From the NCBI GenBank assembly GCA_034189025.1, contig JAXHVS010000142.1, positions 147 to 64,146 of the forward strand: a stretch of DNA of 64,000 bases. Direction: 5' to 3'. The position numbers were made by a program, and so were the translations under genes. This document shows positions 12,192 to 41,617 of this stretch, in pieces. Every line of letters begins with the position of its first letter. The stretch's first letter is position 1. This DNA comes from Bacteroidota bacterium (GTDB lineage Bacteria > Bacteroidota > Bacteroidia > Bacteroidales > UBA12077). A model generated the notes under the pieces. That model was not told the DNA's origin. It saw only the letters and a program-made list of their open reading frames with translations, and did not search any database.

Positions 12192-12264
12192 TCGAATATT
12201 TTTTATATTATACTCCTGTTATTCAAGTAAATACAATTACTAATTTTTACTTCTGTATTTCAAA

Positions 12265-15406: not shown

Positions 15407-15469
15407 CCAAAATTTTAAACTACAAATTTAAGAAAAAATCATGGAATAGAATTGGTTGTATATTTATTA

Positions 15470-16939: not shown

Positions 16940-16970
16940 TATTTTTTTATCCTACGAAATTTAAACATAT

Positions 16971-21498: not shown

Positions 21499-23328
21499 TT
21501 GATTATTTTTGTATCAGTTTTAAAAATCCATTTGGCTGTGTTATTCAGATTTAATAGAGGACAACGGTTTTCAAGACGAATACTTATATGGCGGAATAAA
21601 CATATTAGTGAACGTAAACTAGTATTAATTCTGAGCTTTGTTATTGGTATTTTAAGCGGTTTAGCCGCAGTATTGTTAAAATCTACGGTACATTATACCC
21701 ATCAATTTTTATCTACACGGTTTTTACATGGTGATTTTAATTATTTGTATCTTTTTTTACCATTGGCAGGAATTACATTAACCGTATTGTATATAAAATT
21801 TTTTGTTAAGGATGATATAAGCCATGGAGTATCAAAAATTTTATATGCTCTTTCAAAAAATAACGGACGGATAAGACCACATAATAACTACTCTTCGATT
21901 GTTGCCAGTACGCTTACAATTGGCTTTGGTGGTTCGGTAGGAGCTGAGGCCCCTGTGGTATTAACAGGTGCATCTATTGGCTCCAATCTTGGCCATTATT
22001 TTCGGTTAAATTTTAAATCGGTTGCTCTTTTGTTAGCCTGTGGTACAGCAGGAGCAATTGGAGGTATTTTTAAAGCACCTATAGCAGGGTTAGTATTTGC
22101 TATAGAGGTATTGATGCTTGATTTAACGTTGAGTTCAATAGTTCCATTATTAATCTCATCTGTAACCGGAGCAACAGTTGCTTATCTTTTAATGGGGAAA
22201 GGAGTGGTTTTGTCAGTACTTAATACGCAACCATTTGCCTTAAATAATATTCCTTTTTATATTTTATTAGGTTTGTTGTGTGGATTAATATCCTTCTATT
22301 TTACTAAATCAGCCATGAATATTGAATCCTATTTGGGGAAAATTAAATCCAATACGCGTAGGATTATTACCGGAGGGTTAACACTTGCCGTAATGATATT
22401 CTTATTCCCTTCATTGTATGGTGAAGGAACGTCAACCCTTCAATCATTACTTAATGGGAGTGTCGAAGGGATTCCCAAAAATCGAATATTCTTATTATTC
22501 TCCAAAACAGAAGGGTTAATCCTTATTTATTTTGGTTTACTTTTATTGTTGAAAGTTATTGCCATGTCCATAACAAATGGAAGTGGCGGGATAGGAGGTA
22601 TTTTTGGGCCAACGCTTTTTGTGGGAGGAGTAACCGGATATTGGTTATCAAGATTAATTAACTCCTTTGGTTTTATTGAATTGCCTCAGGGTAATTTTGC
22701 TTTAGTAGGAATGGCCGGGCTTATGGCTGGTGTAATGCATGCCCCGCTAACGTCTATCTTTCTTATTGCCGAAATTACTGGTGGGTATAGTTTATTTATT
22801 CCGCTGATGATTACTGCTACAATTGCTTATATTACTATTTTATCATTTACAAAACATTCGATGTACACCCAACGGCTTGCCGAGCGTGGAGAATTGTTAA
22901 CTCATCATAAAGATGAAGTGGTTTTAACTTTAATGAAATTAGATAGTGTTATCGAGAAAGATTTTGTTACGGTAAATGTTGATCAATCGTTAGGTGAGCT
23001 TGTAAAGGCTGTTTCACAATCCAAACGAAATATTTTTCCTGTATTAAACGAAAAACAAGAGTTGGTAGGAATTGTATTACTGGATAATATCCGTCAGGTG
23101 ATGTTCGACAGAGAACGATACGATGATACCTTTGTTTCGGACGTGATGATTTCTCCCCCCGAAATTGTTGATGTTACTGATAATATGGAGGTAGTAATGA
23201 AAAAGTTTAACACCAGTGGAGCATGGAACCTCCCGGTGATGAAAGACGGCAAATATGTAGGATTTGTATCAAAATCCAAAATTTTTAATACCTACCGAGA
23301 CCTGTTGGTTCAGGTTTCTGAATACTGA
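21499..23328 (+). CDS. ClC-family chloride channel with CBS pair (paralog 2; start codon uncertain)
   Basis: Same motifs (GGSVGAEAPVV, GGIGGIFGPTLFVG, MHAPLTSIFLIAEITG). There is no in-frame ATG near the 5' end. Candidates are TTG 21499, TTG 21532 (gives MAVLFRF..RRILIWR, matching paralog 1 MALQSSFIRRFLIWR) or GTG 21538. Confidence 0.8.
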   Translation: MIIFVSVLKIHLAVLFRFNRGQRFSRRILIWRNKHISERKLVLILSFVIGILSGLAAVLLKSTVHYTHQFLSTRFLHGDFNYLYLFLPLAGITLTVLYIKFFVKDDISHGVSKILYALSKNNGRIRPHNNYSSIVASTLTIGFGGSVGAEAPVVLTGASIGSNLGHYFRLNFKSVALLLACGTAGAIGGIFKAPIAGLVFAIEVLMLDLTLSSIVPLLISSVTGATVAYLLMGKGVVLSVLNTQPFALNNIPFYILLGLLCGLISFYFTKSAMNIESYLGKIKSNTRRIITGGLTLAVMIFLFPSLYGEGTSTLQSLLNGSVEGIPKNRIFLLFSKTEGLILIYFGLLLLLKVIAMSITNGSGGIGGIFGPTLFVGGVTGYWLSRLINSFGFIELPQGNFALVGMAGLMAGVMHAPLTSIFLIAEITGGYSLFIPLMITATIAYITILSFTKHSMYTQRLAERGELLTHHKDEVVLTLMKLDSVIEKDFVTVNVDQSLGELVKAVSQSKRNIFPVLNEKQELVGIVLLDNIRQVMFDRERYDDTFVSDVMISPPEIVDVTDNMEVVMKKFNTSGAWNLPVMKDGKYVGFVSKSKIFNTYRDLLVQVSEY

Positions 23329-23339
23329 ACTAACGATCA

Positions 23340-23777
23340 CTGTTTCTTTCCTAAAAAAAATTATAGAACAAAATCAGGTTATTGCAAGGCAAAAAGATAT
23401 AACTATCCATTTTAAGCAGGGATCGAATGATTTTATTGCACAAATAGATATACAGAAAATTGAACAGGTGCAATAATTTGCTAAGTAATTCAATTAAATA
23501 CTCAGAGCCCGGAACAGATATTTTAATTAAGCTAAGTGAAAGTAACAACTTTTTTAAAACCGAAGTGATTGACCAGGGACAGGGTATCCCGGAAGAAGAT
23601 ATACCCAAATTATTTAATCCGTTTCAAACAACGGGTGTAAAATCAACAGCCGGAGAAAAAAGTACTGGCCTTGGCCTTGCAATTACTAAAAAAATTATTG
23701 CCGAACATGGAGGAGAAATAAATATTGAAAGTGAACCGGGTAAAGGTTCAAATTTTTATTTTTTACTACCATTGTAA
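23340..23777 (+). pseudogene. Histidine kinase remnant: catalytic (HATPase_c) domain only, with internal frameshift
   Basis: Frame 1 reads ...DITIHFKQGSNDFIAQIDIQKIEQV and stops. Frame 2 continues NNLLSNSIKYSEPGTDILIKL...DQGQGIPEEDIPKLFNPF...GLGLAITKKIIAEHGGEINIESEPGKGSNFYF (N, G1, G2 boxes). The frames join at 23470-23472, where a Leu codon is reduced to a single c. No HisKA or sensor part lies upstream, because the ClC stop is at 23328. Confidence 0.75.
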
Positions 23778-23797: not shown

Positions 23798-25566
23798 TTA
23801 TTTATTGGAGACGTATAGGTTAGGTTTAGAAAATTCCTTAACCTGTTTCTGAAATTCATTTTTAAAGATAACGCTAAAAACCGAACCCTCACCTTTTTCA
23901 CTTTGTACCTTTATTTCGGCACCATTTAATTCCAGCAGTTTCTTTGTAATCGATAATCCCAGTCCAATACCCTCATATTGCCTTGTATAGCCTGCATCTT
24001 CCTGCGAATAGGGAGTAAAAATGTTGTTGAGGTAATCGCTGCTCATCCCAATACCGGTATCTTCTATGGCAATAATTAAATCATTTTTTTCATTGTGAGA
24101 ACAGCTTATTTTAACAAGTCCATTCTCGGTACGGTATATTTAATTGCATTTTGAATAATATTAGAAAAAGCATTTTCTACAGCATATTGATCAATAATAA
24201 GTTGTGTGTTTTCCGTGTTTTGTTCAATGATAATTTCGAGATTTTTCTTTTTTATCTCCACCTGATGTTCTTCGAGGATGTTTTCAATAATTTGTATGAA
24301 ATCAACTTTTAAAGGTTTAATTTCCATATCGTCTGCATTAAGCTTTGCGTAATCAAGCATCATATCTACCGTTCGTTCTAACCTGCTGGATGCATTAAAG
24401 ATTATCTGGAAAAATTCATTACTCCGGTCATCGATATGTTTTTCAAATTTGCTTTTCAAAATATTTGTAAAACCATTGATAGCATTCAACGGGGTTCTGA
24501 TTTCATGCGATATATTGCCAATAAATACATCTTTAATTTTACTTGCTTTTTCAGCTTCCTCTTTAGCCACTAAAAGTTGTTTCTCATATTCTTTTAAATG
24601 GGTGATATCTATTATCATTCCCGAAATTTCATCTCCGTTTAAAGATGCATTTATTGTTATATTTTTCGCCTCTCCAAGTTTGGTTAATAATAATATTTCA
24701 TAATTAGATATCCGCTTATTTTGCTTAATTGTATTAATCAGTTTTTCTCTTTGTTCTTTGGCAGGATATAAATCATTTATATTAATTTCATCCGAATTTG
24801 TATACCCCAAAATATTACAAAATGCCTTGTTGGCATAAATTAATTCTCCGTTAATATTTGAAGTATATATACCTACTAATGAATTTTCAACCAGGTTTTT
24901 ATATTTTTGTTCTGATTTTTGTAAAGCTATTTCAGTTAATTTTTGTTCGGTAATATCAGTAATATATCCTTCAATCCATCTTAATTCCCCATTCTCGTTA
25001 TAATTACCAACACCCTGTTCCCATACCCACTTTGTTGCATTTTTTTTTGTTTTTATGCGGTATGTTATCCTAAATTGTTTATTTATTTCAAGCGCTTGTT
25101 GTATTTTGTTTTGTACTTTTTGGCGGTCTGCGGGTACAATCAAATGTGCATAAGCTATTTTTTTATTGTTAATGAGTTCTTCGGGTTTATATCCGGTAAT
25201 TTCTTCAATTCCGTTGCTTAAATAGCTCATAGTCCAGTTAGTGTCGTTTTGGCAGCGATAAACGATACCCTTTAAATTGCCAATTAAAATGGATAGTTGT
25301 TTTTCCTTTTCTTTTAATTGTTTGAGATATTTAATATGCCTGGTCTTTCGTTGATCAATGTCTATAAACTTTTTGATTGATTTTGAGGTTAATATATAAA
25401 TTAAAACGGTTGAGAGTAAAACAAAAATCCAACCTTTATAGGTTTGTATTTTGGATAGGATTACCGGGTCATATCCAAAAGATAACAGGATTTTATCCGA
25501 AAGGGTAATCCATAAAAAACTAAGCGTAAAATAAATTAAAGTAATTAACCAGGCAGATTTATTCAT
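23798..25566 (-). pseudogene. PAS-domain sensor histidine kinase interrupted by a 5-bp tandem duplication
   Basis: ORF 24106..25566 (2 TM, two PAS, HisKA ISHEIRTPLNAINGF) ends ...NAIKYTVPRMDLLK*. ORF 23798..24046 carries the rest of HATPase_c (GIGLGLSITKKLLELNGAEIKVQSEKGEGSVFS). CGGTACGGTA at 24127-24136 is a CGGTA duplication. Removing one copy restores NAIKYT-ENGLVKISCSHNEKNDLIIAIEDTGIGMSSDY. Confidence 0.8.
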
Positions 25567-25799
25567 ATTAAGAAGAGTAGTTTAGTCTAATACAAGATAA
25601 GAAAATTAAATCTTTTTATATGTTTGAAACAATAATTTTAAAATAAAGTTTAATTCTTATTAGTTGATTACTATAAGTTAATAAATAACAAAAACTTTAA
25701 TAAGTTTAATATTTTATACGGAAATTTGAAACAACAGTTGCATGTTTTTCGGTTAAAAAATAGTAAATTTATTGAAATTCTAAACGTTAATATTTTAAA

Positions 25800-28202
25800 A
25801 TGGGAAAAACAGTTCTTGAAAAATGTACATTACTTTATGTTGATGATAGTGATGCCAATCTATATCTTTTTGAAGAAAATTTTAGTGAAGAATATAATGT
25901 ATTGACTGCATTATCGGGAGCTGAAGCCTTAGAAATTGTAAAAGAAAAACACCTCGATGTTATTATTTCAGATCAGGCAATGCCCAAAATGACAGGAGTT
26001 GAGTTTTTTGAGAATGTTATGAGAATTAATCCAGGGCCCAATCGGATTCTTTTAACAGCATATAGTGATATTAAGGCATTGGCAGATGCGGTAAATAAAA
26101 CTAAAATTTATCAGTATGTTAATAAACCGTGGGATTACGAAAAGCTTAAAACCATTATTGATCATGCGATAAATGAATATAAACTTAGGGAGAGTAATGT
26201 TGAACTTACCCAAAAGTTAAAAAAGCAAACTGAAGAGTTACAGGAACTGCTAAAATCGAAGACCGAATTATTAAATCAGCTGGAAAAGTCAAACGAAGCC
26301 CTTGAGAAAAGTGAAATCCGCTTAAAGCGGATTATTGATTTATCTCCAATCCCTATTTTTGTTGAAGATTTTGACGGGAATTTAAATATATTGAATGATC
26401 AGTTTAAAGCAGTTTTTGGGTACACATTGAAAGACATTCCTAATGCTGACAAATGGTATGAGTTAGCCTATCCCGATACTGAATATCGCAAAAGACATAA
26501 ACAAATCTGGGATAACCAAATAAAACTAGCCATTGAAAACAATACCGTAATGGAACCTATTGAAGCCATTGTACGGTGTAAAAGCGGTGAGAATAAAGTG
26601 ATTCAAATACAATCCTCGCCTATTGATAATAATATTGTAACCATGATTAATGATCTAACAAAGGTTAAAACCCTGGAAAAAGATATATCCTTTCGGATAA
26701 AAATGGAAGAAGAACTTCGAAGTGCAAAACAAAAAGCTGATGCTGCCAGTAAATCGAAAAGTGAATTTATTGCCAGCATGAGCCATGAAATTCGTACACC
26801 CATGAATTCAATATTGGGCTTTGCTGATTTATTAGAACAGGAACTCGATAATTCCGTGATGGTGGATTATGTAAAATCAATACAATCAAGTGGCAAAACA
26901 TTGCTCAGCTTAATAAATGATATTCTTGATTTTTCGAAAATTGAAGCCGGGAAAACAGAGATTAAATATGAATCGGTACATATTCGAGGATTAATCCAGG
27001 ATATTGCTGAAATTTTTAAATTTAGTGCGAAAGAAAAAAATTTAGACCTAGTTACAGAGTTAGATGATCATTTGCCTGATTACCTAATGCTTGATGAGTT
27101 ACGCATAAAGCAAATATTACTAAATTTGGTTAGTAATGCCGTAAAATTTACCGAAAATGGGTTTGTAAAAATCAGTGCAAATGTAAATAAGATTTCAGAA
27201 GAGAACGTTGAATTGTCCATAAAGGTTAAGGACACCGGTATTGGTATCGACTCCAAACAACAAGAAAAGGTTTTTAAAGTTTTTGAACAAATGGAAGGGC
27301 AGGATAACAAAAGATACGGAGGTACTGGTTTGGGACTAGCCATTTCGAATAAATTGGCCAGTTTAATGGACGGTAAAATATTGCTTGAAAGCAAAAAAAA
27401 TAAAGGTAGTACATTTACTTTAACATTAAATAATGTAGAAATTGCTGGAGACACAGATGAACAAAAGACTGTATTAGATTCTGGAAATGAAAAAATTAAT
27501 TTTAAACCGGCTAAAGTTTTAATTGTTGACGATAATGAAAGTAACCGTAAAGTATTACAATTAAAATTAATGAAATATAATTTTGAAATTTTTGAAGTAA
27601 CGAATGGTATCCAAGCATTATCAATACTTAAAAATACTATCCCTGATATTATGTTTATCGATTTAAACATGCCCGAAATGAATGGTTATGAGTTGTATGA
27701 AAAAATTTGTGAGAATTACACATTAAAAAATATTCCTGCCATTGCTGTTACAGCCTTTACCTTGGATCATGATGAAGAAAAAGTGCTTAATGCTGGCTTT
27801 GCTGGCTATGTGAGTAAACCTGTAGATTTTAAAATAATTTTTAGTATACTTAAAAAGTATATTGAATACGAAGAATTAACTGAAACGGAGGATCAAAGTA
27901 TTTCGTATAGCCAATTAGAATTGAAGGAAGAAGCATTAAAAAATTTGCCTTTTTTATTGAGAGAGTTAGAAGAACAGAGTGCTCCTTATCTTGAAAAAAT
28001 GCAACATATCCTGCCCAAAAAGGTTGTGGCTGGGTTTGCCCAAATGTTAATTAGCATGGGCGAAAAATATAATAATAAAGCGGTAACTAATTATGGACAT
28101 GAAATAATGAATGCTTCCAAAGCTTTTAATGTGGAAAAAGAAAAAGAATTAATCAAACGGTTTAAGCCGTTTGTCGAAAAATTTAAAAATCTATTGCCAT
28201 AA
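25800..28202 (+). CDS. Hybrid sensor histidine kinase: REC - coiled coil - PAS - HisKA - HATPase_c - REC - HPt-like tail
   Basis: N-terminal REC (VIISDQAMPKMTG), PAS, MSHEIRTPMNSILGF, NLVSNAVKFT / DTGIGI / GTGLGLAI, second REC (IMFIDLNMPEMNGYE), ~110-aa helical C-terminal tail. Confidence 0.85.
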   Translation: MGKTVLEKCTLLYVDDSDANLYLFEENFSEEYNVLTALSGAEALEIVKEKHLDVIISDQAMPKMTGVEFFENVMRINPGPNRILLTAYSDIKALADAVNKTKIYQYVNKPWDYEKLKTIIDHAINEYKLRESNVELTQKLKKQTEELQELLKSKTELLNQLEKSNEALEKSEIRLKRIIDLSPIPIFVEDFDGNLNILNDQFKAVFGYTLKDIPNADKWYELAYPDTEYRKRHKQIWDNQIKLAIENNTVMEPIEAIVRCKSGENKVIQIQSSPIDNNIVTMINDLTKVKTLEKDISFRIKMEEELRSAKQKADAASKSKSEFIASMSHEIRTPMNSILGFADLLEQELDNSVMVDYVKSIQSSGKTLLSLINDILDFSKIEAGKTEIKYESVHIRGLIQDIAEIFKFSAKEKNLDLVTELDDHLPDYLMLDELRIKQILLNLVSNAVKFTENGFVKISANVNKISEENVELSIKVKDTGIGIDSKQQEKVFKVFEQMEGQDNKRYGGTGLGLAISNKLASLMDGKILLESKKNKGSTFTLTLNNVEIAGDTDEQKTVLDSGNEKINFKPAKVLIVDDNESNRKVLQLKLMKYNFEIFEVTNGIQALSILKNTIPDIMFIDLNMPEMNGYELYEKICENYTLKNIPAIAVTAFTLDHDEEKVLNAGFAGYVSKPVDFKIIFSILKKYIEYEELTETEDQSISYSQLELKEEALKNLPFLLRELEEQSAPYLEKMQHILPKKVVAGFAQMLISMGEKYNNKAVTNYGHEIMNASKAFNVEKEKELIKRFKPFVEKFKNLLP

Positions 28203-28231
28203 ATGAATTTATTTTAAAAAAGAGAACCTGA

Positions 28232-29392
28232 ATGGATACGCAAAAATTTAAAATTTTAATTATTGATGACAATCCAAAAAACCTACAGGTATTAGGAAAT
28301 TTGCTGGAAAAAAATCAATACAATGTTGAATATGCATTAAGTGGAAACGAGGCTTTGGAATGGATAAAATCAGAACAATTTGATTTAATACTTCTAGATA
28401 TTATGATGCCCGGGATGGATGGATATGAAGTGTGTGAAAACATTAGAAAAGATGAGAAGTACAGCGATATTCCAATTATTTTTTTAACGGCAAAAACCGA
28501 CAAAGAAAGTATTGTGAAAAGTTTTGAGCTTAATGCACAAGATTATGTAAGTAAACCTTTTGATACTGCAGAATTATTAGCTCGTATCAATACTCATCTT
28601 GAATTAAAAGACAGCCGCGATAAACTAAAGAATGTCAATCAGTGGTTAGAACAAAAAGTAGATGAAAAAACCAAGGCGTTGCAGGAAACCAATAAAAAAC
28701 TGGAAGAAGCACTAACCGAGTTGCAAAACCTCGATAAAATGAAATCTTATTTTTTAAATATGACCAGTACCGAAATCAAAACTCCTTTAACAGGGATTAT
28801 TGGTACTTTGCATGTGCTAAAAAATCAGGAAGCTTCGTTTGCCCTTAAAAACCTGATTAATTTACTGGAGAAATCGGTTTCCCGCCTCGAAAATTTTGCC
28901 AATAAAGCAATTTTAACCACTGAGCTAAGTTCGAAAACGTATGAGTTTAAACCTGAAGAAATTGATGTAGCTGAACTTGTAAGTTTTTGTATCTTAGAGT
29001 TAAACGAGGTATTAGGACAACGCAATATTGATATTGAGGAGCATTTGGATGATATAAAAATTTCCGGCGACAAAGATCTTTTATTTAAAGCGTTGCTTTT
29101 TTTAATTCGCAATGCAGCCGAACATACCAATGATGAATCTAAAATTGAAATTTCATTAAAAAACGAAGAGAAAGGAATTGTGCTTTCCATTCTCGATTTT
29201 GGGAAGGGCTTTAGTAAAGAAACAATTGAGGAAATATACTCTCCCTACCGGTTTAAAGAGGAAGCGTTTAATGAGAATAACGAACTGAGTATGTATATCG
29301 TAAAGTTAATTATGGATTATCATCATGGAGCGTTAAAGGTTTTTAATAAGGAGAATGCCGGCGCTTGCGTGGAATTGATTTTTACTAAATAA
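28232..29392 (+). CDS. Response-regulator receiver fused to a degenerate histidine-kinase-like module (phospho-acceptor His replaced)
   Basis: REC (LILLDIMMPGMDGYE ... SKPF). The HisKA-like helix reads MTSTEIKTPLTGIIG, with Thr (acc, 28769-28771) where the H-box His normally sits (S-H-E-I/L-R-T-P-L). The CA domain keeps N (LIRNAAEHT) and G1 (DFGKGF), but G2 (GxGL) is not evident. Confidence 0.75.
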   Translation: MDTQKFKILIIDDNPKNLQVLGNLLEKNQYNVEYALSGNEALEWIKSEQFDLILLDIMMPGMDGYEVCENIRKDEKYSDIPIIFLTAKTDKESIVKSFELNAQDYVSKPFDTAELLARINTHLELKDSRDKLKNVNQWLEQKVDEKTKALQETNKKLEEALTELQNLDKMKSYFLNMTSTEIKTPLTGIIGTLHVLKNQEASFALKNLINLLEKSVSRLENFANKAILTTELSSKTYEFKPEEIDVAELVSFCILELNEVLGQRNIDIEEHLDDIKISGDKDLLFKALLFLIRNAAEHTNDESKIEISLKNEEKGIVLSILDFGKGFSKETIEEIYSPYRFKEEAFNENNELSMYIVKLIMDYHHGALKVFNKENAGACVELIFTK

Positions 29393-29402
29393 TGTTGTTA
29401 GA

Positions 29403-32400
29403 ATGAATAAATTACTGCTTGAAAGTTTAATCCGATTGTTTGCGTTTATTGCAGCGCTTCATCCATTCCTATATATTGATAATGTAAAATTATTTATTCA
29501 ATCATTTTTGCGTAAAGAGTTTTCGGCCGATATTTTGAACGATTATCTGATATTCTTCAATAACTATTATGATGAATATACATCGAATCGTAAATATGCC
29601 GGGGAAAATGATTTATCGAAATTTATTCAGCAACATATTTCGGAGCTAGTAAACGAATTATATATTTCCGACCGCTTTCTGTTATTAATTCGGTTATTGT
29701 TCTTCCATAAATTTTTACTTAAATATCAAAAATTAGCTAAAGAATCAGAAACTTTGAGTATTAATTCGATTACCCTGGAAATTTCCCGTGCATTAAATAT
29801 ACATGAGGCCGATTATCGTAATTGTAAATCTTTTATTTTCGAGAAATTATACGATATAAAACAAAAGGACAATCTTTTGGTTGTAGGTAGTAAGAATCTG
29901 GCAAAAACGGGTATTCATTTTATCGAGCGCGAAAAATTAAAGGGTAATATTTATTTTCTGAAAATTACGGGAGCTAATATTTTACTTTTTTATTATAAAG
30001 GATCGGATAAGATTACGATTGATGATTTTAATATTTTTCCCGAAAATATTTATATTTTTCACCTGGGCTCAAAAATTGATGGAGAAACCATTGATCCGCT
30101 ATATTATAACGAAGTAGCCCGCGAATTTGAATCAGAAAGTAATATCACGGTTCAGTTAAAAGCTCAGGAAATAGAATTTACTTTTCCACATAGCAATAAT
30201 GGTATTCATCAATTGTCATTTGCTGCAGAATCAGGCCAGATGATTGGTGTTATAGGGAAAAGCGGAGTGGGAAAATCAACACTGATTAATCTTTTAACAG
30301 GTTCATTAAAACCGAAATCAGGGAAAATATTAATCAATAACTATGATATTTTTAAAGAGCAAAAATATATTGAGGGGCTAATTGGATATATCCCACAGGA
30401 TGACCTGCTTATAGAAGAATTAACGGTTTTTGAAAATTTGTATTTAAGCTCTAAACTTTGTTTAGGAAATTTAAATAAAGCAGAAATTGTACAACAAGTA
30501 GAGATATTATTAAAAAATCTTAATTTATTTGAGGTTAAAGACTTAAAAGTAGGAACACCGTTAAATAAGTTTATCAGTGGGGGACAGCGTAAGCGTTTAA
30601 ACATAGCCCTAGAGTTAATTCGTGAACCCTGGATTTTATTTGCCGACGAGCCCACCTCTGGCCTGGCTATTTCCGATGCCGATGAAATTATGGAGTTGTT
30701 AACCCATCAGGCAGCAAAAGGGAAAATTGTTTTTGCCAATATTCATCAGCCTTCATCGGAGCATTTTAAAATATTCGATAAAATCCTGGTGCTTGATAAA
30801 GAAGGATATCCTGTATATTATGGGAATCCTGTAGATTCTATTCATTATTTTAACGAAGCAGCCAACAAATTTGTTAAACTTTCAGACAAATGCCAGTTAT
30901 GCGGAAATGTAAACCACGAAACGGTTTTTAATATATTATCTGAAAAAAAAGTCGACAGCAAGGGGTTATTACTTAATGAGCGGAAAATACCTGTAAAGCA
31001 ATGGCATCAATATTATTTAAAGAGTATACCCGAAGAGATAAAATCAGAAAACAGTGAGAAAGGGAACCTGCCTAATATACAGTTCAGAAAACCATCTGCA
31101 ATTAAACAGTTTATCGTTTTTTTACAACGTAATGTTTTAAGAAAAGTCACAAATCATCAATATGTTGCTTTTTCACTGTTAATTACCCCGTTACTTGCTG
31201 TTATTCTAGCATTAATAACCCGTTCCGGCATTGATAAGATAACTGGTAAATATTCTTTTATCTTAAACGATAATATTCCGGCCTACCTTTTTATGTGTGT
31301 TATTGTTTCATTGTTTGTTGGGTTGGTTATTAGTGCCGAAGAAATTTTTCGTGACCGCAAAATGTTAAAACGCGAGCAATTTCTTAACCTGGATAAAACC
31401 GCGTATTTGTTTTCTAAATTATCTTTACTTTTTTTTGTCAGCATGGTACAAACGGTTTTATATGTTGTTATTGGGAATGCCATACTGGCCATTGACGGAA
31501 TGTTCTGGCAATATACGCTGGTTTTATTTACAACTTCTTGCTTTGCCAATACATTGGGATTACTAATTTCTTCATTGTTTAACTCTGTTGTTGTTATTTA
31601 TATCCTTGTTCCTTTGTTAATTGTCCCTCAAATATTGTTAAGCGGTACTATTGTTCAATATGATAAATTGAATGAGAAAATAAAATCGGAAAAATATGTT
31701 CCTGTAATTGGCGATATGATGGTATCAAGATGGGCTTACGAAGCGCTTGTTGTTACCCAGTTTAAGGATAACAGGTTTCAAAAACACTATTTCCCTGTCG
31801 AACAAAAAATAAGTAACCTAAAATATGATTTGTTATTTGTGATTTCCGAGGCCGAAGGGGCATTAGAGGAGATAAAATATGGAATAGATAAAGAGTTAAA
31901 TCAGCAGATAGATTTTATTTGGTCGTTAATTACTCAACTGGATAACAAATATAATATTAATATCTCGGAAAAAGTGTTTAATCGTTTGCCTGATGATGAA
32001 GCCCGAATGGCAATAGCGCAGGAGTTGAGACAATTAAAAAAGGAGTTAAATGAAAATATTAACCATTTTATGTATACCAAAGATAGTATTACAAATGTTT
32101 TGGTAAAATATCTTGGTGGGATTGATGAATATAATCAGCTGAAGAATAAGTATTACAATAATAACCTGGCCGAAATGGTTTTAAATCGTAGTACTTTTAA
32201 TCCTGCCGAAAAAAGCATGCATTCCAACGAATTAATCCGAAAAATTGAACCCATTTATCATAAACCCTTGTCCAATTATGGAAGGGCACACTTTTTGTCA
32301 TCTGTAAAAATTATTGGTAAGCGCGAGTTTAATACTTTATATTTTAATATTTTTGTTATCTGGATGATTTCAATCGTATTATTTATTATTTTAGATATTA

Positions 32401-32432
32401 CTTTTAAAAATAAAAATTTAATTATAAAATAA
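29403..32432 (+). CDS. ABCG-type (ABC-2) fused ATPase-permease with ~270-aa N-terminal and ~240-aa C-terminal extensions
   Basis: Walker A GVIGKSGVGKSTL, signature ISGGQRKRLNIALEL, Walker B ILFADEPTSGLA, H-loop NIHQPS, then 5-6 TM of ABC-2 type. No motif recognised in residues 1-270. A long soluble stretch follows the membrane domain and ends in one more TM (IFVIWMISIVLFIILDI). Confidence 0.85.
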   Translation: MNKLLLESLIRLFAFIAALHPFLYIDNVKLFIQSFLRKEFSADILNDYLIFFNNYYDEYTSNRKYAGENDLSKFIQQHISELVNELYISDRFLLLIRLLFFHKFLLKYQKLAKESETLSINSITLEISRALNIHEADYRNCKSFIFEKLYDIKQKDNLLVVGSKNLAKTGIHFIEREKLKGNIYFLKITGANILLFYYKGSDKITIDDFNIFPENIYIFHLGSKIDGETIDPLYYNEVAREFESESNITVQLKAQEIEFTFPHSNNGIHQLSFAAESGQMIGVIGKSGVGKSTLINLLTGSLKPKSGKILINNYDIFKEQKYIEGLIGYIPQDDLLIEELTVFENLYLSSKLCLGNLNKAEIVQQVEILLKNLNLFEVKDLKVGTPLNKFISGGQRKRLNIALELIREPWILFADEPTSGLAISDADEIMELLTHQAAKGKIVFANIHQPSSEHFKIFDKILVLDKEGYPVYYGNPVDSIHYFNEAANKFVKLSDKCQLCGNVNHETVFNILSEKKVDSKGLLLNERKIPVKQWHQYYLKSIPEEIKSENSEKGNLPNIQFRKPSAIKQFIVFLQRNVLRKVTNHQYVAFSLLITPLLAVILALITRSGIDKITGKYSFILNDNIPAYLFMCVIVSLFVGLVISAEEIFRDRKMLKREQFLNLDKTAYLFSKLSLLFFVSMVQTVLYVVIGNAILAIDGMFWQYTLVLFTTSCFANTLGLLISSLFNSVVVIYILVPLLIVPQILLSGTIVQYDKLNEKIKSEKYVPVIGDMMVSRWAYEALVVTQFKDNRFQKHYFPVEQKISNLKYDLLFVISEAEGALEEIKYGIDKELNQQIDFIWSLITQLDNKYNINISEKVFNRLPDDEARMAIAQELRQLKKELNENINHFMYTKDSITNVLVKYLGGIDEYNQLKNKYYNNNLAEMVLNRSTFNPAEKSMHSNELIRKIEPIYHKPLSNYGRAHFLSSVKIIGKREFNTLYFNIFVIWMISIVLFIILDITFKNKNLIIK

Positions 32433-32438
32433 AAATTT

Positions 32439-33332
32439 ATGAAATACAGCTATATCTTATTACCTGTTCTTGTCTTTATTTTAATTTTTAGCGGATGTAA
32501 TTCATGCAAGAAAGAAAAAAAGGAAACTTCAGAAAAAACTGAAGTCACAGAAGCTATTCGTATACAAGATACTTTAAACGAAGTAATTTATGTGTTGCCA
32601 TCGCCCAATGAAATTTTAGCTGAAATTTTTATGGATGAGGTGAAAATTAACCTATCATTTGTTAATCCTTATACAAATGCTAAAAATTATTTGGATACAC
32701 GAAGCCAGGCTGTTAATTTGGGTGTATATATTGCTGATTTTGCATACCTGAGTTACTCTTTCGAAAATACAACCGAGTTAGAATATTTGAAAGTTATCAA
32801 GAAATTATCGGAGGATGTAAATATCTATGGTTTAATGGAGAATAAAACCATGGAGCGTATTCAAAATAATCTTACAGAAAAGGATTCATTAAATAAAATC
32901 TCTCAGGAGCTATATTATAAAATCTCTAATAACCTGGAGAATTCAAACAGGGAAAATATTTTTACTTTAATTTCTACCGGAGCTATTGTAGAATCATTGT
33001 ACTTATCTGTAATGCTTGTCGATGATTTTGATGATTATAAAGAGATTATTGAAAAGATGTATGAGCAGAAGTTTGTTTTTGATAATTTTTACGAATATGC
33101 TCAGGTATATGCTGATGATCCTTACGTAAAATTGATTATTGACCAACTTGAAGTTTTAAAACAAACATTTGATCAGCTAAATAAAGAAGAGAAGGAGCAA
33201 AAGGTTGTTGATGAAGAGGGGAAAATGAGATTTGCCGGAGGATCGAAATTTGTTGTAGATAATAAGAATTTTGATCAATTTAAAACCAATATTATTTCTA
33301 TTCGAAACGAAATTATAAAACCTAATAATTAA
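32439..33332 (+). CDS. Uncharacterised helical lipoprotein (paralog of 34865..35755)
   Basis: Lipobox LIFSGC. 297 aa. Colinear by eye with 34865..35755 (e.g. NLGVYIADFAYLSY / NLGIYLADLAYAAF; ISTGAIVESLYLSVMLVDDF / ISAGTYIESIYLSLCLVDKF; FKTNIISIRNEI / FLNTIRKIRNEI). Confidence 0.7.
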   Translation: MKYSYILLPVLVFILIFSGCNSCKKEKKETSEKTEVTEAIRIQDTLNEVIYVLPSPNEILAEIFMDEVKINLSFVNPYTNAKNYLDTRSQAVNLGVYIADFAYLSYSFENTTELEYLKVIKKLSEDVNIYGLMENKTMERIQNNLTEKDSLNKISQELYYKISNNLENSNRENIFTLISTGAIVESLYLSVMLVDDFDDYKEIIEKMYEQKFVFDNFYEYAQVYADDPYVKLIIDQLEVLKQTFDQLNKEEKEQKVVDEEGKMRFAGGSKFVVDNKNFDQFKTNIISIRNEIIKPNN

Positions 33333-33377
33333 TTATGGCATTTTATATGCATTGAAATATATTAAAAGAGTAACAAA

Positions 33378-33860
33378 ATGAAAAATTACAATATATTTTT
33401 AGTTTTTACACTTTTCGTTTTTATCGCTTTAATACCGGTTAAGCATGTTAATGCTCAATATTGCGACCGGTTTCACGAGACTTCTTCATGCAGGTTATCC
33501 AATGATGGCAGCTTTAAGCCTTACGGACAATCGAAAAGTGCTATGGTAGAGATAAAAAAAACATTTGAGTATAAGCTGGTTTTGTATGGTGAAAAAGATT
33601 TTAAGATTGGTATTTGTACCGAAGACGGTTTTGGGCCGGTACACTTCAAAATAATAAATGCCCGTAACAAAAAAGTTTTATACGATAATATGACCGATGA
33701 TTATATTGAATCAATAGGTTTTACTAATGATTTTACTCAAAGTGTTATCATTGAAATAACAGTATTAGCTGAAGATATTGAACCCGAAGATGCTTATGAT
33801 ACCCGGGCGTGTGTAGGTGTTAATATTTTATGGCGTAAAGCACCTAAAATTGGATTCTAG
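33378..33860 (+). CDS. Small secreted protein, uncharacterised
   Basis: 160 aa, signal peptide ending VNAQ, 4 Cys. Its stop abuts the next ATG. Confidence 0.6.
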   Translation: MKNYNIFLVFTLFVFIALIPVKHVNAQYCDRFHETSSCRLSNDGSFKPYGQSKSAMVEIKKTFEYKLVLYGEKDFKIGICTEDGFGPVHFKIINARNKKVLYDNMTDDYIESIGFTNDFTQSVIIEITVLAEDIEPEDAYDTRACVGVNILWRKAPKIGF

Positions 33861-34646
33861 ATGAGAATATTGTTTATTTTACTAGCTGTTGTATCGTTTT
33901 CGGTTAATTTATTTGCACAGAATCTTGTCCCTAATCCTAGTTTTGAAGTGTATGATGAGTGCCCTTACGATATGACAATATACCCTCAAAAAAAATTAAT
34001 TCCTCACTGGTATATGCCTAATCGGGGAACAAGCGATTATTTTAATAGTTGTACAAATTTGCAGGTTAGTGTTCCTACTAATTTTATTGGGAACCTATGG
34101 GCGTATGATGGACATGCATATGCAGGAATTGTATTACTCGAAATGCATGTAGAGGATACGGCCGGGAAAAAAGACCAGAACTATCGTGAATATTTGCAGA
34201 CAGAAATAAAAAGGCCATTGCTTAAAAACCATTATTACCTGGTTAAGTTGCATTATGCTGTGGCAACTTATTCAACTTATGCTGTTAACCGCCTGGGAAT
34301 CTATTTTTCCAAAGAGCAGATTAAAAACAGACGAACTTATCAAACACTTGAGTACGATCCACAGGTTGTTATTCCTGAAGACACTATTCTTACCGAAACC
34401 AATATTTGGTATACTTTATATGATACAATTAAAGCAAGTGGAGGGGAGAAGTATATTACGATTGGGAATTTTTATCTTGATAAAAAAACCGATTTTGCAA
34501 AACTAGATATCTCACAATTTAATTTACCATTACAAGATCATATTAACAATAACGGACTTGCCTATTACTACATTGATATGGTTTCTGTTGAGGAGCTGGT
34601 TCGTAAAGATACTGAAAAATGTACACCACACATTCCTGTGCGTTGA
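33861..34646 (+). CDS. Secreted protein, uncharacterised
   Basis: 261 aa, signal peptide ...NLFAQ. The N-terminal NLVPNPSFEVYDECPYD...HWYMPNRGTSDYFNSC motif is, to my recollection, seen at the N-termini of Bacteroidota outer-membrane-associated proteins. ATG immediately follows the previous TAG. Confidence 0.6.
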   Translation: MRILFILLAVVSFSVNLFAQNLVPNPSFEVYDECPYDMTIYPQKKLIPHWYMPNRGTSDYFNSCTNLQVSVPTNFIGNLWAYDGHAYAGIVLLEMHVEDTAGKKDQNYREYLQTEIKRPLLKNHYYLVKLHYAVATYSTYAVNRLGIYFSKEQIKNRRTYQTLEYDPQVVIPEDTILTETNIWYTLYDTIKASGGEKYITIGNFYLDKKTDFAKLDISQFNLPLQDHINNNGLAYYYIDMVSVEELVRKDTEKCTPHIPVR

Positions 34647-34864: not shown

Positions 34865-35755
34865 TTAATTTAAGGTAATTTCATTCCTTATTTTTCGGAT
34901 AGTATTGAGGAATGAATTAAACTGTTCCTCATTCATAACTACTTTTTCAGCACTTTTAAAACGAACTGTACCATTGGGGTTTTTTATAAAAATCAATTTT
35001 CCTTTATCTTCAACCTTGAATTGGTTGTACAAACTTATAATCTTTTCTAAATAAGGAATAACTTCTTTTACATTGTAATCTTTATCATATAACTTACTTG
35101 TATTTAATAAGCTGACAAAAGCATTTTTTTGGCCGGCAATTTGTTTAATCAATTCATTTTCATCAGAAAACTTATCTACCAAACAAAGTGATAAATAAAT
35201 ACTCTCAATATAGGTTCCTGCACTAATAATAACCATTAAACTATTGCTATTATTATACTCAAGTTCCTGCATTATTTCATAGTAATATACATTGGTTAGA
35301 TGGTAAATAGAATCCAGGTTTTCCATGTTCTGAATAAGATCTTCTTTCATTTTTGCTTTGGTCTCAGCTGAAATAAGTAGATCATTACTCGTTTGACTAA
35401 TTACATCAACATATTTTGTAATTTGATTTCTTTTTGAAAAGAATGCTGCATAAGCTAAATCGGCAAGATAAATACCCAGGTTTAAGTTTTTAGTTTTGGT
35501 ATTTAGGTATTGATTCACATTACCTGCCGGATTAAGGTATTGATTATTAAAGTTTAAATGCTCTTTTTCAATTACATCTAATAATTCATCTGGAGTTGGA
35601 TATGTATATAGTATTTCTTGTGATATTAATGTGTCTGATTGGTTGAAGGGTTGATGATGTTGCGATCTTAAGGTAAATGAATAAAGACTGATTAAAATTA
35701 CAAGTAAAATTTGTAATAAGTGATAAGCTTTGATTTTTAATCTTAGTTGGTTCAT
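34865..35755 (-). CDS. Uncharacterised exported helical protein (paralog of 32439..33332)
   Basis: The track ORF starts at 35842. The ATG at 35755 (MNQLRLKIKAYHLLQILLVILISLYSF) gives a signal/anchor sequence and 296 aa, matching the 297-aa paralog. Confidence 0.65.
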   Translation of the reverse strand: MNQLRLKIKAYHLLQILLVILISLYSFTLRSQHHQPFNQSDTLISQEILYTYPTPDELLDVIEKEHLNFNNQYLNPAGNVNQYLNTKTKNLNLGIYLADLAYAAFFSKRNQITKYVDVISQTSNDLLISAETKAKMKEDLIQNMENLDSIYHLTNVYYYEIMQELEYNNSNSLMVIISAGTYIESIYLSLCLVDKFSDENELIKQIAGQKNAFVSLLNTSKLYDKDYNVKEVIPYLEKIISLYNQFKVEDKGKLIFIKNPNGTVRFKSAEKVVMNEEQFNSFLNTIRKIRNEITLN

Positions 35756-36137
35756 ATAGATACTGTTCTTATTATATATAATACAATTTTTTTTATTTAA
35801 CGTAAATCTTAAAATTACGTTACTCCAGTAATTTTTTATCATTAATAAAAAACGATTAATTAGATTCCGTGTATAAAATTATAATAAGAGTGTAAAAATC
35901 ACTAATAAAGCGTTTTAAAGAAATGCACGAAATCTTTAAATTGTTTTAAATTAATAAATAATTAGCTATATGCTACAATTATTTTTTGTGAAATAAAGAT
36001 AATTTGCCTGTTTTATCAACAATTTTTTGTCATTTGTTGATACTTTTAAAGTTTTTGTCAAAAAAAAGTTTTTTAATTTGTTGGATGTTAAGGATTAATT
36101 AATTAAAATTGATGCTGTTTTAATATCTGGTAAAGAT

Positions 36138-36563
36138 ATGGAAGTTGATAAATCCGTTAAAAAAATAGAACAATCTGAAAACATCTTTGAAGGTAAAAAA
36201 ATACTTATTGTAGAAGATGATGATATTGGATACTCTTTGTTGAGGGAGATATTTGCTTATTATGAATTTACTATCGAACGAGCAAAAGATGGGTTAGAGG
36301 CCATTGAGTATTTTAAACATCATAAATATGCTTTTGATTTAGTGTTAATGGATCTTCGATTACCCAATATGAATGGTTTTGAAGCTACTTCTAGTATAAA
36401 AGATATTAATCCTTCGATTCCAGTTATTGCTGTTACTGCTTATGTTAACTCACAGAGTATTTACGATAGCCAGAATTGTGGCTGTGATGAGTTTATTGCC
36501 AAACCCTTTGAAATAAAATATCTTATATATATTGTTCAACAATATCTATCCGTTAAGAATTAA
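36138..36563 (+). CDS. Stand-alone response-regulator receiver (CheY-like)
   Basis: 141 aa. ILIVEDDD, LVLMDLRLPNMNGFE, AVTAY, AKPF. Confidence 0.85.
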   Translation: MEVDKSVKKIEQSENIFEGKKILIVEDDDIGYSLLREIFAYYEFTIERAKDGLEAIEYFKHHKYAFDLVLMDLRLPNMNGFEATSSIKDINPSIPVIAVTAYVNSQSIYDSQNCGCDEFIAKPFEIKYLIYIVQQYLSVKN

Positions 36564-38026: not shown

Positions 38027-38069
38027 TTTGGTTATTTGCTTATATTTATATTTTCTAAAACAGAAGAAA

Positions 38070-38834
38070 ATGGAATGGTATATTATTTTAGTGGTTATAG
38101 GCGTTGGTTTTGTAGCTGGATTTATTAATACATTAGCCGGAAGTGGCTCATTGCTAACCTTACCGATGTTAATGTTTTTAGGATTGCCTGCCAATGTAGC
38201 CAACGGGACAAACCGGATAGGTATTTTGTTTCAAAGTATTGTGGCTTCGGGAAGTTTTAAGAAGCAGGAAGTATTGGATGTTAAAACTGGCTTGTGGCTT
38301 GCCATCCCGAGTGTTATTGGAGCCATTGCCGGGTCAATCTGGGCGGTAAACCTTACCGATGAAATCATGCGGATTTTTATCGGGATTTTGCTGGTGGCTA
38401 TGTTTTTTATCATTTTGTATAAACCCGATGTGTGGATTAAAGAACAGGCAGGAAATATTAAGGGAAAACCTTCCCTGTTACAAATGGTTATTTTTTTTGT
38501 GATAGGCCTTTATGGTGGTTTTATCCAGGCTGGTGTAGGTTTCTTTTTGTTGGGAGGGCTTGTTTTAGGTGCAGGGTATGATTTGGTTAAAGCCAATGCG
38601 ATAAAAGTATTTTTAACCCTTTTGTTTACCATCCCGGCGTTAACCGTTTTCATTATTAATAATCAGGTAAATTTTTTATTGGGAATTATATTAGCTGCAG
38701 GAAGTATGATGGGTGCTTATGTAGCTGCAAAAGTAGCCGTTAGCTGGGGTGCCAAATTTGTACGTTATGTTTTGTTGGTTGCGATTATGGGCTCGGCATT
38801 AAAATTATTTGGTGTTTTTGAGTTGATTTTTTAA
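38070..38834 (+). CDS. TauE/SafE-family anion exporter (paralog 1)
   Basis: Multi-TM. LAGSGSLLTLPMLMFLGLPANVANGTNRIG, with a second-half repeat GGFIQAGVGFFLL. The track start at 38028 is a TTG just past the glyA terminator T-run; the ATG at 38070 is preferred. Confidence 0.8.
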   Translation: MEWYIILVVIGVGFVAGFINTLAGSGSLLTLPMLMFLGLPANVANGTNRIGILFQSIVASGSFKKQEVLDVKTGLWLAIPSVIGAIAGSIWAVNLTDEIMRIFIGILLVAMFFIILYKPDVWIKEQAGNIKGKPSLLQMVIFFVIGLYGGFIQAGVGFFLLGGLVLGAGYDLVKANAIKVFLTLLFTIPALTVFIINNQVNFLLGIILAAGSMMGAYVAAKVAVSWGAKFVRYVLLVAIMGSALKLFGVFELIF

Positions 38835-38836
38835 TA

Positions 38837-39592
38837 ATGGTTGAAGAATTATTACCATACATTTCCATTTTGGTTGGTTTTCTGGCAGGTTTCATTAATG
38901 TATTTGCTGGTGGAGGATCATTGTTAACATTACCGTTACTAATTTTTATGGGATTACCTGCCAATGTAGCCAACGGAACGAACAGGATTGCTCTGCTGAT
39001 GCAAAATGTTGTAGCTACCGGTAGTTTTAAACAGCAAAAAGTTTTAAAATTTAAACAAGCAATATTCCTTGTTATTCCAGCAAGTATTGGCTCAATTATA
39101 GGGGCTGTTATCGCGGTTAATGTGGCCAGTGATGTTTTAGAGAAGATTATTGGCATCATGCTGATACTCATGTTTTTCTTTATCCTCTTTAAACCGGAAA
39201 AATGGTTAAAAACACCAGATGAGCAAATGATGGTGAAACCAACATTTATGCAATTCGTGATATTTTTTGCCATAGGATTGTATGGCGGATTTATACAGGC
39301 AGGTATCGGTTTTTTCTTAATTGCTGCTTTGGTGCTTACGGTAGGAGTTGATTTGGTAAAAGCTAATGCTTTAAAATTGTTTATTGTTTTAATTTACAAT
39401 ACCCTTGCCTTTGTTGTTTTTGTATTAAATCACCAGGTAGACTATAAAATCGGGCTAATATTGGGAATTGGCAATATGTTAGGAGCATTTGTAGCTACGC
39501 GTGTTGCGGTAAAAAAAGGGCCGCAATTTGCCCGCTATGTTTTGTTGATAGCGTTGGTTATCTCTTCGTTGAAATTATTGGGAGCTTTCTAA
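38837..39592 (+). CDS. TauE/SafE-family anion exporter (paralog 2)
   Basis: FAGGGSLLTLPLLIFMGLPANVANGTNRIA. Colinear with paralog 1. Starts 2 nt after its stop. Confidence 0.8.
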   Translation: MVEELLPYISILVGFLAGFINVFAGGGSLLTLPLLIFMGLPANVANGTNRIALLMQNVVATGSFKQQKVLKFKQAIFLVIPASIGSIIGAVIAVNVASDVLEKIIGIMLILMFFFILFKPEKWLKTPDEQMMVKPTFMQFVIFFAIGLYGGFIQAGIGFFLIAALVLTVGVDLVKANALKLFIVLIYNTLAFVVFVLNHQVDYKIGLILGIGNMLGAFVATRVAVKKGPQFARYVLLIALVISSLKLLGAF

Positions 39593-41532: not shown

Positions 41533-41617
41533 ACAATATTTTAATTAATCCAGTTTATAAACGTTAAACATTTTATTAAAAATATTTTCAAAGGTAAAAA
41601 TACTTTAAATTTCTTAT

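Follow-up and report, generated by a model that had tools for sequence, protein, structure and literature searches.

This report concerns six consecutive genes, g1 to g6, in a 64,000-nucleotide stretch of DNA from a Bacteroidota bacterium (GenBank assembly GCA_034189025.1, contig JAXHVS010000142.1). This whole stretch is called the window below, and coordinates follow its numbering unless a locus from another genome is named. We conclude that these genes make up a genuine module of Bacteroidota, conserved and not yet characterised, which probably controls the export or the remodelling of an envelope component. All six are read from the + strand with intergenic gaps of 29, 10, 6, 45 and 0 nt, exactly as had been claimed in the original prediction, which was made from the letters of the DNA; the coordinates of the open reading frames were rechecked. 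g1 (25800-28202) codes for a soluble hybrid histidine kinase and g2 (28232-29392) for a receiver domain (REC) fused to a pseudo-histidine kinase. g3 (29403-32432) codes for an ABC protein of about 1000 residues (1009 aa), which unites a nucleotide-binding domain (NBD) and an ABC-2 transmembrane domain (TMD), and g4 (32439-33332) for its conserved partner, a lipoprotein whose large family has no name. The last two products are secreted: that of g5 (33378-33860) is a small protein with four invariant cysteines, and that of g6 (33861-34646) matches the N-terminal domain of OmpA-family proteins of Bacteroidota, without the OmpA domain.

The 233 nt that precede g1 (25567-25799, + strand) are presumed to be the promoter region. 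The long AT-rich leader described earlier is borne out, its GC content being 22-24%, compared to 30-35% in the genes. It holds one match to the Bacteroidota-type -7 motif, TATGTTTG, at 25619-25626; scans of the window showed no enrichment of this motif, and sigma-70 promoter-like and terminator-like sites are no more frequent than expected by chance. No Rfam family was matched anywhere in the window, so that no riboswitch is evident in this long leader, and a scan for intergenic repeats gave nothing notable.

Relatives of g3 occur at 597 or more places in a collection of species genomes (one genome per species), of which the best 80 loci were analysed. In all, 85 related loci, designated by L numbers, were compared using tblastn, clustering of open reading frames and HMM searches.

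Domain architecture of the encoded proteins

Pfam recognises in g3 an ABC_tran domain at residues 269-419 (E 1e-30), then ABC2_membrane at residues 569-787 (E 5e-19). The NBD (residues 250-480, 30150-30842) thus precedes the ABC-2/ABCG-type TMD (residues 565-787, 31095-31763), which comprises transmembrane helices TM1 to TM5 and a re-entrant helix, in a single polypeptide, as in the half-transporters of the ABCG/White type. No FtsX or MacB_PCD permease domain, which would indicate a type VII transporter, was found in g3 by Pfam, only ABC2_membrane. Every ATPase motif is intact and does not vary across the family: Walker A (GKSGVGKST), Q-loop, signature (ISGGQRKR), Walker B (ILFADEPTSGL) and H-loop (IHQPS). 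The NBD and TMD align jointly to the ABCG1, ABCG2, ABCG5 and ABCG8 chains, with E values of about 1e-33 to 1e-35; a single alignment matches residues 273-767 of g3 to residues 106-600 of ABCG1, and another residues 281-754 to residues 76-559 of ABCG2. The top NCBIfam match is the White family TIGR00955, with 237.6 bits, far below the cut-off of 736.35. g3 belongs to a distant, bacterial branch of the ABCG/White type.

The fused ABC ATPase/ABC-2 permease of the original prediction is therefore confirmed, and the two large domains that it left unassigned can now be placed. According to hydropathy, five transmembrane segments at residues 588-746 are followed by a conserved re-entrant segment, GDxMxSRWAYEAL, then by a hydrophilic region (residues 788-982, 31764-32348) and by a last transmembrane helix, TM6 (residues 983-1001, 32349-32405; hydropathy 2.73), after which comes a Lys-rich C-terminus. 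Since TM6 follows about 195 hydrophilic residues, the second of these domains is not a C-terminal tail; it is periplasmic and is inserted between TM5 and TM6, where ABCG proteins have the loop called EL3. Profile and sequence searches revealed no relative of this EL3 domain in Pfam or the PDB.

The other domain is N-terminal and cytoplasmic. Its structure was predicted and submitted to Foldseek, a check that had been suggested with the original prediction. The AlphaFold2 (AF2) model of the first 250 residues (pLDDT 86.5, pTM 0.84) consists of an eight-helix bundle (residues 3-145) and a beta-sandwich (residues 158-227), from which we delimit a TerB-like bundle at residues 1-146 (29403-29840) and an FHA-like sandwich at residues 155-245 (29865-30137). 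The TerB profile PF05099 was matched in 14 of 24 orthologous N-domains at E < 1, and the best match, with 24.9 bits against a gathering score of 24.4, spans profile positions 3-116, nearly the full profile. About 48 of the 50 PDB matches listed by Foldseek for the sandwich are FHA domains (E 0.15-2, probability at most 0.95, template modelling score 0.3-0.5), and Pfam gives a weak FHA match in one orthologue, L048 (E 0.1). Sequence and profile searches of the PDB with the N-domain gave nothing significant. The residues by which canonical FHA domains bind phosphothreonine (Gly-Arg, Ser-x-x-His) are not conserved, and only a Ser-x-Asn is partly so. We therefore call the N-terminal module TerB-like and FHA-like, without claiming that it binds phosphothreonine.

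The N-terminal and EL3 domains are constant in length in all 76 full-length family members (195-220 residues for EL3) and diverge fastest in sequence, with 25-27% identity to g3, compared to 54-57% for the NBD and TMD. The divergence of the EL3 domain correlates with that of the lipoprotein in a partial Mantel test where the NBD/TMD distances are controlled (r 0.38, permutation p 0.001); the same test against the lipoprotein gives r 0.22 for the N-domain and r 0.04 for the linker.

Pfam and NCBIfam gave no match for g4, g5, g6 or the g4 paralogue g7 described below, and sequence and profile searches of the PDB found nothing significant for g4, g5 and g6. g4 has a lipobox (FSG followed by C20), and its confident AF2 model (pLDDT 80.7, pTM 0.78) shows a disordered tether, two beta-hairpins and a nine-helix bundle, in agreement with its earlier description as a helical lipoprotein. 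Comparison of this model with the PDB by Foldseek, also among the checks proposed, found no analogue (best E 0.87, template modelling score at most 0.25), which suggests a fold without known analogue, relative to the PDB. The family is large: 88 homologues were found with a word index, and an exhaustive search of a representative library returned 3032 clusters at 50% identity. All these relatives have about 290-310 residues and are unnamed, or "hypothetical" where a source name exists. The invariant polar residues include D100, D149, E185, Q210, R289, Y84 and Y188.

g5 and g6 both carry cleavable signal peptides, as expected from their earlier description as a small Cys-containing secreted protein and a secreted protein with an NLVPNPSFE motif. 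The cysteines of g5 (C29, C38, C80 and C145) are invariant, and g5 is homologous to "c5" proteins of about 142 residues encoded elsewhere between the lipoprotein and ABC genes (hhalign probability 97.3%, E 2e-11). g6 belongs to a family of 528 homologues whose longer members (e.g. P0316-P0328) carry a C-terminal OmpA domain, PF00691; g6 is homologous to the N-domain of these NLVPNPSFE proteins of the OmpA family, and Pfam finds in it no such peptidoglycan-binding domain. g6 is 32% identical (E 5e-26) to an OmpA protein of L082 encoded beside PorP_SprF and CHU_C genes. Three genes stand together there at 14235-17790 (- strand): one for a g6-like N-domain fused to OmpA, PorP_SprF, and a PKD/CHU_C gene whose product has a type-B C-terminal domain of the type IX secretion system. 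This trio hints at a link between the g6 family and the outer-membrane complexes of type IX secretion. g6 is retained in the operon only in L001-L003, L081 and L084.

Just downstream, the convergent gene g7 (34865-35842, - strand) codes for a protein genuinely paralogous to g4 (33% identity, E 5e-41). The inverted paralogue was correctly recognised in the original prediction. g7 has a signal anchor and no lipobox. Its orthologue in L002 aligns from residue 30, so the start is probably Met30, at about 35755. The stand-alone receiver that had also been noted there is g8 (36138-36563, + strand; Response_reg E 1e-25, REC only), a lineage-specific neighbour conserved only in L002.

Pfam assigns to g1 the domains REC-PAS-HisKA-HATPase_c-REC, as had been predicted, and the catalytic set is complete (His329, the N, G1 and G2 boxes, Asp58 and Asp621). 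A hydropathy scan shows no transmembrane segment. The C-terminal tail of about 100 residues is helical, but the histidine phosphotransfer (HPt) domain that had been suspected there is not supported. That assignment was rejected: Pfam finds no Hpt match and no His is conserved, Gln or Ser occupying the position expected of the His, in the orthologues as well.

The description of g2 as a receiver fused to a kinase-like module without phospho-acceptor His proved accurate. Pfam and NCBIfam recognise REC and, weakly, HisKA and HATPase_c. The H-box reads MTSTEIKTP, with Thr180 in place of the phospho-acceptor His (the control H-boxes of g1 and L015 read SHEIRTP); the G2 box of the ATP lid (GxGLG) is missing, NNELSM standing in its place, and G1 is degenerate in most orthologues. 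With neither the H-box His nor the G2 box, g2 does not qualify as a catalytic HisKA histidine kinase. Its receiver, on the contrary, is intact: Asp56 is accompanied by the conserved Thr and Lys, as are Asp58 and Asp621 in the receivers of g1. The H-box His is replaced by T, S, N or Q in 12 of the 13 g2-like genes found directly upstream of the ABC gene in other loci (13 of 14 with the window), so that g2 is a conserved receiver-pseudokinase and the loss of the His is no one-off mutation. The sole g2-like gene that keeps the His is that of L082 (7832-8980), a REC-kinase adjoining an ABC gene that is 47% identical to g3; its H-box reads LISHEVKSP.

Two further roles were considered for g2. That Thr180 could be a phosphothreonine ligand of the FHA-like domain was rejected, because the position varies (T/S/N/Q) among orthologues. 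The retained ExxT motif led us to consider that g2 may be a dedicated phosphatase; the last position of this motif is only partly conserved (T/N/S/K/P).

Conservation of the module and its signalling partners

The best 80 of the 597 or more loci all belong to Bacteroidota (Bacteroidales, Marinilabiliales-type genera and Flavobacteriales). Partners were counted in the 56 loci that extend at least 2 kb on both sides of the ABC gene, a gene being considered near when it lies within 2.5 kb. A lipoprotein of the g4 family is near the ABC gene in 37 of these 56 loci, directly downstream or upstream and on the same strand, and a small four-Cys protein of the g5 family in 20.

The complete six-gene form occurs in L001-L003, whose ABC proteins are 72-90% identical to g3, and also in L084 (50%) and L081 (49%). 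L084 has the order kinase (793 aa), pseudokinase (391 aa), ABC protein (1009 aa), then proteins of 292, 158 and 251 aa; L081 carries three hybrid kinases. In L082 (47%), two hybrid kinases and the His-containing REC-kinase precede the ABC protein, the lipoprotein and g5, and the sixth gene (13705-14142) is a second g5-like four-Cys paralogue that stands in place of g6. Kinases with the architecture of g1 are found upstream in L001, L002, L081, L082 and L084. A shorter form, g2-g3-g4-g5, is present in L004, L005, L006, L008, L010, L014, L016, L050 and L085, with variants in L013, L019 and L052. The g2-like gene abuts or overlaps the start of the ABC gene in L004, L005, L006, L008, L010, L014, L016, L081, L084 and L085.

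Independent metagenome-assembled genomes thus share the six-gene layout even where ABC identity is down to 49-50%, and dozens of species share the core pair, which shows that the adjacency of these genes is beyond chance; that they could be random neighbours was a reservation attached to the original prediction. The self-contained six-gene system that it described is indeed co-conserved, but it is not a single indivisible unit. The module is nested: its core is the ABC protein and the lipoprotein, with or without the small protein, and different lineages have exchanged its regulators.

No characterised pathway accounts for the module, as had been supposed. g4, g5 and g6 have no assignment in Pfam, NCBIfam, the PDB or PADLOC, and the homologues of the ABC protein bear only generic names. 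Literature searches on ABCG, Bacteroidetes and lipoprotein, on SiaC, ABC and Bacteroidetes, and on TerB, FHA and ABC found no paper on the g3 family. An anti-phage defence system was considered and rejected, the PADLOC matches being weak and limited to generic REC and ATPase families.

The g3 family is repeatedly tied to phospho-signalling, through partners that are interchangeable: a pseudokinase-receiver, a phosphatase of PP2C type, or SiaB/SiaC. Where sister ABC genes lack the pseudokinase, they have other signalling modules beside them. In L022 (8854-14969), L077 and L078, a full set of SiaABC-like genes brackets the ABC gene: those for SiaC (PF09345) and DUF6272 are upstream and divergent, and that for a HAMP-SpoIIE (PP2C) phosphatase follows directly, 50 nt downstream, the ABC gene standing in place of the diguanylate cyclase SiaD. 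A fused DUF6272-SiaC adjoins the ABC gene in L066 and L073; that of L066 (8978-9895, - strand) is a single protein of 305 residues which joins DUF6272, a SiaB-like kinase, to SiaC. SiaC, alone or with DUF6272, is also nearby in L026, L045, L046, L051, L056, L064 and L070, and DUF6272 only in L049. In L019 and L052, it is a REC protein (381-388 aa), clustering with a PP2C-motif protein, that adjoins the ABC gene. The window itself contains no SiaC (PF09345), DUF6272 or PP2C phosphatase gene detectable by Pfam. Whether SiaC of Pseudomonas is phosphorylated depends on SiaA and SiaB; SiaC then binds its neighbour SiaD and activates it, and proteins of the DUF1987/SiaC family have been proposed to modulate adjacent proteins in general (PMC8457831). 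That interchangeable regulators surround an ABC protein with a fast-evolving cytoplasmic module argues for post-translational control of the transporter. The swapping of regulators would also fit a transporter that is an obligatory partner in signalling.

Enzymes of lipid metabolism adjoin some sister ABC genes. A patatin-like phospholipase is encoded directly downstream, on the same strand, in L060, L062 and L063 (about 13135-15360; 741 aa, membrane), and a PlsC-type acyltransferase in L056 and L070 (about 11011-12210). These five loci give the only metabolic hint of a lipid cargo.

Some genomes depart from the one-module pattern. L050 contains, at 1573-2827 (- strand) and 3-4 kb from its main module, a second pair of lipoprotein and small protein without its own ABC gene; this pair and g7 of the window show that duplication of the periplasmic partners does not require that of the transporter. 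Two genomes have two paralogous ABC modules each, LJUP01 (L008, L018) and JAUWMO01 (L038, L071), and the paired modules differ in layout, pseudokinase-ABC-lipoprotein-g5 in one case and lipoprotein-ABC in the other. This suggests that several ABC systems operate in parallel in one cell. In L085, a gene for a 63-residue PspC-domain protein (13587-13778) overlaps the end of the g5 homologue, a possible link to envelope stress.

As for the surroundings of the operon in the window, the divergent gene upstream (23798-25566, - strand) codes for a PAS-PAS-HisKA kinase which a frameshift, near 24133-24145, divides in two; the alignment with its 598-residue orthologue in L001 runs in frame -2 as far as 24133 and continues in frame -1 from 24145 to 23801. 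The split kinase is either a pseudogene or an assembly error. Between it and two tandem genes for CLC chloride channels with CBS pairs (19686-21464 and 21499-23328, + strand) lies an open reading frame of 105 residues (23460-23777, + strand), which is a complete HATPase_c domain (E 9e-27) without HisKA and looks like the remnant of a kinase. On the other side are tandem TauE/SafE exporter genes (38028-38834 and 38837-39592) and, 6-11 kb downstream, genes for a 1465-residue TamB-family protein and a MotA/ExbB-family protein (40834-46015, - strand), related to envelope biogenesis and not conserved beside the module elsewhere.

Possible functions of the module

The co-conservation of the neighbours and the lack of a characterised pathway support the idea, put forward in the original prediction, of a sensor-controlled system for export or envelope remodelling; this is the most economical reading of the locus. 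What the data show directly is the architecture, the topology, the conservation and the exchange of regulators; the function itself we infer. In more specific terms, we propose that the locus encodes a Bacteroidota-specific machine of the ABCG type (type V), gated by a phospho-signal, which extracts or exports a lipophilic envelope component. We consider this a serious possibility that falls a little short of being probable. Lipids or lipid-linked molecules are the typical substrates of type V exporters (ABCG, ABCA, Wzm, TarG), and the ABCG fold class is best known from sterol and lipid export in eukaryotes. A bacterial precedent is Rv1747, an ABC exporter bearing FHA domains which is regulated by phosphorylation and has been linked to the export of a glycolipid, PIM (PMC3138270, PMC5549992). 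A cargo of lipid type is supported by the class of the transporter, by this precedent, and by the phospholipase or acyltransferase neighbours in five loci.

In this mechanism, the soluble kinase g1 would integrate a cytoplasmic signal via its PAS and REC domains and would control the phosphorylation state of the g2 receiver. Being unable to autophosphorylate, g2 would act by binding to another protein, for which the TerB/FHA-like module of g3 is the most plausible candidate, and would thereby switch the ATPase activity. The g3 dimer would then extract or flip a lipophilic envelope molecule out of the inner membrane, and its periplasmic EL3 domain would pass this cargo to g4 and g5, while g6 may act further out, at the wall or the outer membrane. 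The only indication of a contact between EL3 and g4 is the mirror-tree signal of the partial Mantel test.

Several points weigh against this proposal. No lipoprotein gene is near the ABC gene in 19 of the 56 loci. No substrate, biosynthetic cluster or experimentally studied member of the family was found, so that lipid export is deduced from the transporter class and a few neighbours. Neither Pfam nor the alignment of the g1 tail with its orthologues gives an HPt that could connect g1 with g2; the contacts of g2 with the N-domain, and of EL3 with g4 and g5, are presumed; and information may flow from the kinase to the pump or from the pump to the kinase. TerB was not detected in g3 of the window itself, nor is it among the matches listed by Foldseek, and the FHA-like assignment stands on Foldseek E-values that are below significance, in a domain that lacks the phosphothreonine-binding Arg. 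Last, the mirror-tree signal is inflated by shared phylogeny, the partial Mantel test being a weak one.

Could ATP hydrolysis by g3 serve to move the 195-residue periplasmic domain, with no cargo at all? The protein would then be a mechanotransmitter similar to FtsEX or MacB, which carries the signal of the phosphorelay from the inside out and switches g4, g5 or g6, for example an enzyme or a tether to the wall or the outer membrane. Cytoplasmic regulators are unusually numerous in the family, a cytoplasmic module of the ABC protein is devoted to regulation, its large periplasmic domain co-varies with a periplasmic partner, the invariant polar residues of g4 are compatible with an active or binding site, and no cargo biosynthetic genes are present at the loci. 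However, the known mechanotransmitters are of type VII, whereas the membrane domain of g3 is of the ABC-2/ABCG type, not FtsX/MacB, and its ABCG relatives are true translocators of lipids and drugs; moreover, searches of Pfam, NCBIfam and the PDB recognise no enzymatic domain in g4, g5 or g6. We consider this explanation somewhat unlikely. The direction of signalling could also be reversed: g3 would detect or remove a toxic external compound and report it to g2 and g1, g4 to g6 being protective envelope proteins. BceAB-BceS pairs work in this manner, by transporter flux sensing, and here neither g1 nor g2 has a sensor domain in the membrane or the periplasm; a large extracytoplasmic domain belongs to the ABC protein, whose gene is always found beside a kinase-like one. 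Yet BceAB has an FtsX-type fold, unlike g3, the module includes no conserved DNA-binding response regulator, g2 cannot autophosphorylate, and the partner in sister loci is a switch of the SiaABC type, which is known to control an adjacent effector. A transporter acting as sensor appears to us quite improbable.

An ordinary multidrug or antimicrobial efflux pump whose exported and two-component neighbours are unrelated to it is already disfavoured and has the least credit with us. It is true that homologues are annotated as "ABC-type multidrug transport system ATPase subunit" and that generic ABC families score well, but the neighbours are co-conserved in dozens of species, where they occur in either of two gene orders, the domains at the N-terminus and at EL3 are specific to the family and invariant in length, and start-stop overlaps suggest co-translation.

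The proposal of a signal-gated export machine can be extended to the whole family, at the price of more speculation. The g3 family could be the motor of an undescribed pathway of envelope-lipid trafficking or inside-out signalling, in which a phosphorylated partner docks on the TerB/FHA-like module and gates an ABCG-type engine; the periplasmic domain of this engine, some 200 residues long, would hand a cargo or a conformational signal to g4, a lipoprotein of new fold, and to g5, a small protein with disulfide bonds. The docking partner would be the REC-pseudokinase here and the SiaC-type phosphoproteins in the sister loci. We hold this broader pathway to be unlikely. If it were true, it would provide a direct post-translational link from two-component or partner-switch signalling to the composition of the envelope, and proteins of the SiaC family would gain a second class of targets, besides diguanylate cyclases.

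Envelope biogenesis in Bacteroidota, including the traffic of lipids and lipoproteins between membranes and the reshaping driven by signalling, is poorly mapped compared to that of Proteobacteria. The module is widespread, with at least 597 relatives and more than 3000 lipoprotein clusters at 50% identity, and has no characterised member. What is new here is an ABC module coupled to signalling that combines a conserved pseudo-histidine kinase, a unique periplasmic insertion and two protein families without PDB relatives. It offers a tractable entry to the post-translational regulation of bacterial ABC exporters, and to the roles of pseudo-histidine kinases and SiaC-type phosphoproteins outside model systems; since culturable carriers exist, among them Breznakibacter xylanolyticus DSM 6779 (L048), Marinifilum sp. 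(L024) and Perlabentimonas gracilis (L053), these predictions are directly testable.

Comparison with known systems

LolCDE-LolA, MacAB, FtsEX-EnvC and BceAB are built on type VII permeases (FtsX/MacB_PCD), which have their periplasmic domain between TM1 and TM2. The logic is shared with g3, in that a cytoplasmic ATPase is coupled via a periplasmic domain to periplasmic or lipoprotein partners. On the contrary, g3 is of the ABC-2/ABCG type with its domain between TM5 and TM6, and g4 has no LolA-like or other known fold.

DivL of Caulobacter is a pseudo-histidine kinase. Like DivL, g2 conserves the DHp-CA (dimerisation/phosphotransfer and catalytic) module without the phospho-acceptor His, and its function is expected to be exerted via contacts with phosphorylated receivers. 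Unlike DivL, it has a receiver of its own at the N-terminus and a degenerate ATP lid, and it is tied to the gene of a transporter rather than to a cell-cycle kinase.

The resemblance to the SiaABCD system of P. aeruginosa (PMC7647112, PMC8457831) concerns the sister loci L022, L077, L078, L066 and L073, where genes for SiaC-family, DUF6272 and HAMP-PP2C proteins surround an ABC gene that occupies the position of SiaD. The window has no Sia genes, and instead of a diguanylate cyclase it would be an ABC transporter that forms the putative output.

Rv1747 of M. tuberculosis (FHA-FHA-NBD-TMD, regulated by PknF; PMC3138270, PMC5549992) is a bacterial ABC exporter with FHA-type domains N-terminal to the NBD, where g3 has its FHA-like sandwich. 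Rv1747 adjoins its own signalling kinase, engages in phosphorylation-dependent protein contacts and is linked to the export of an envelope glycolipid. In g3, a single degenerate FHA-like domain follows a TerB-like bundle and lacks the canonical phosphothreonine-binding Arg; the neighbours are two-component proteins (SiaABC in sister loci) instead of a Hanks-type Ser/Thr kinase, and the transporter has a large periplasmic domain and partners.

In architecture, g3 resembles the eukaryotic half-transporters ABCG1, ABCG2 and ABCG5/G8, in which the NBD also comes first, the membrane domain has the ABC-2 fold, a re-entrant helix follows TM5 and EL3 precedes TM6. g3 differs from them in being bacterial and in scoring far below the TIGR00955 cut-off, and it adds to the common plan an N-terminus of 245 residues that appears TerB-like and FHA-like, an EL3 domain of about 195 residues, and dedicated periplasmic partners.

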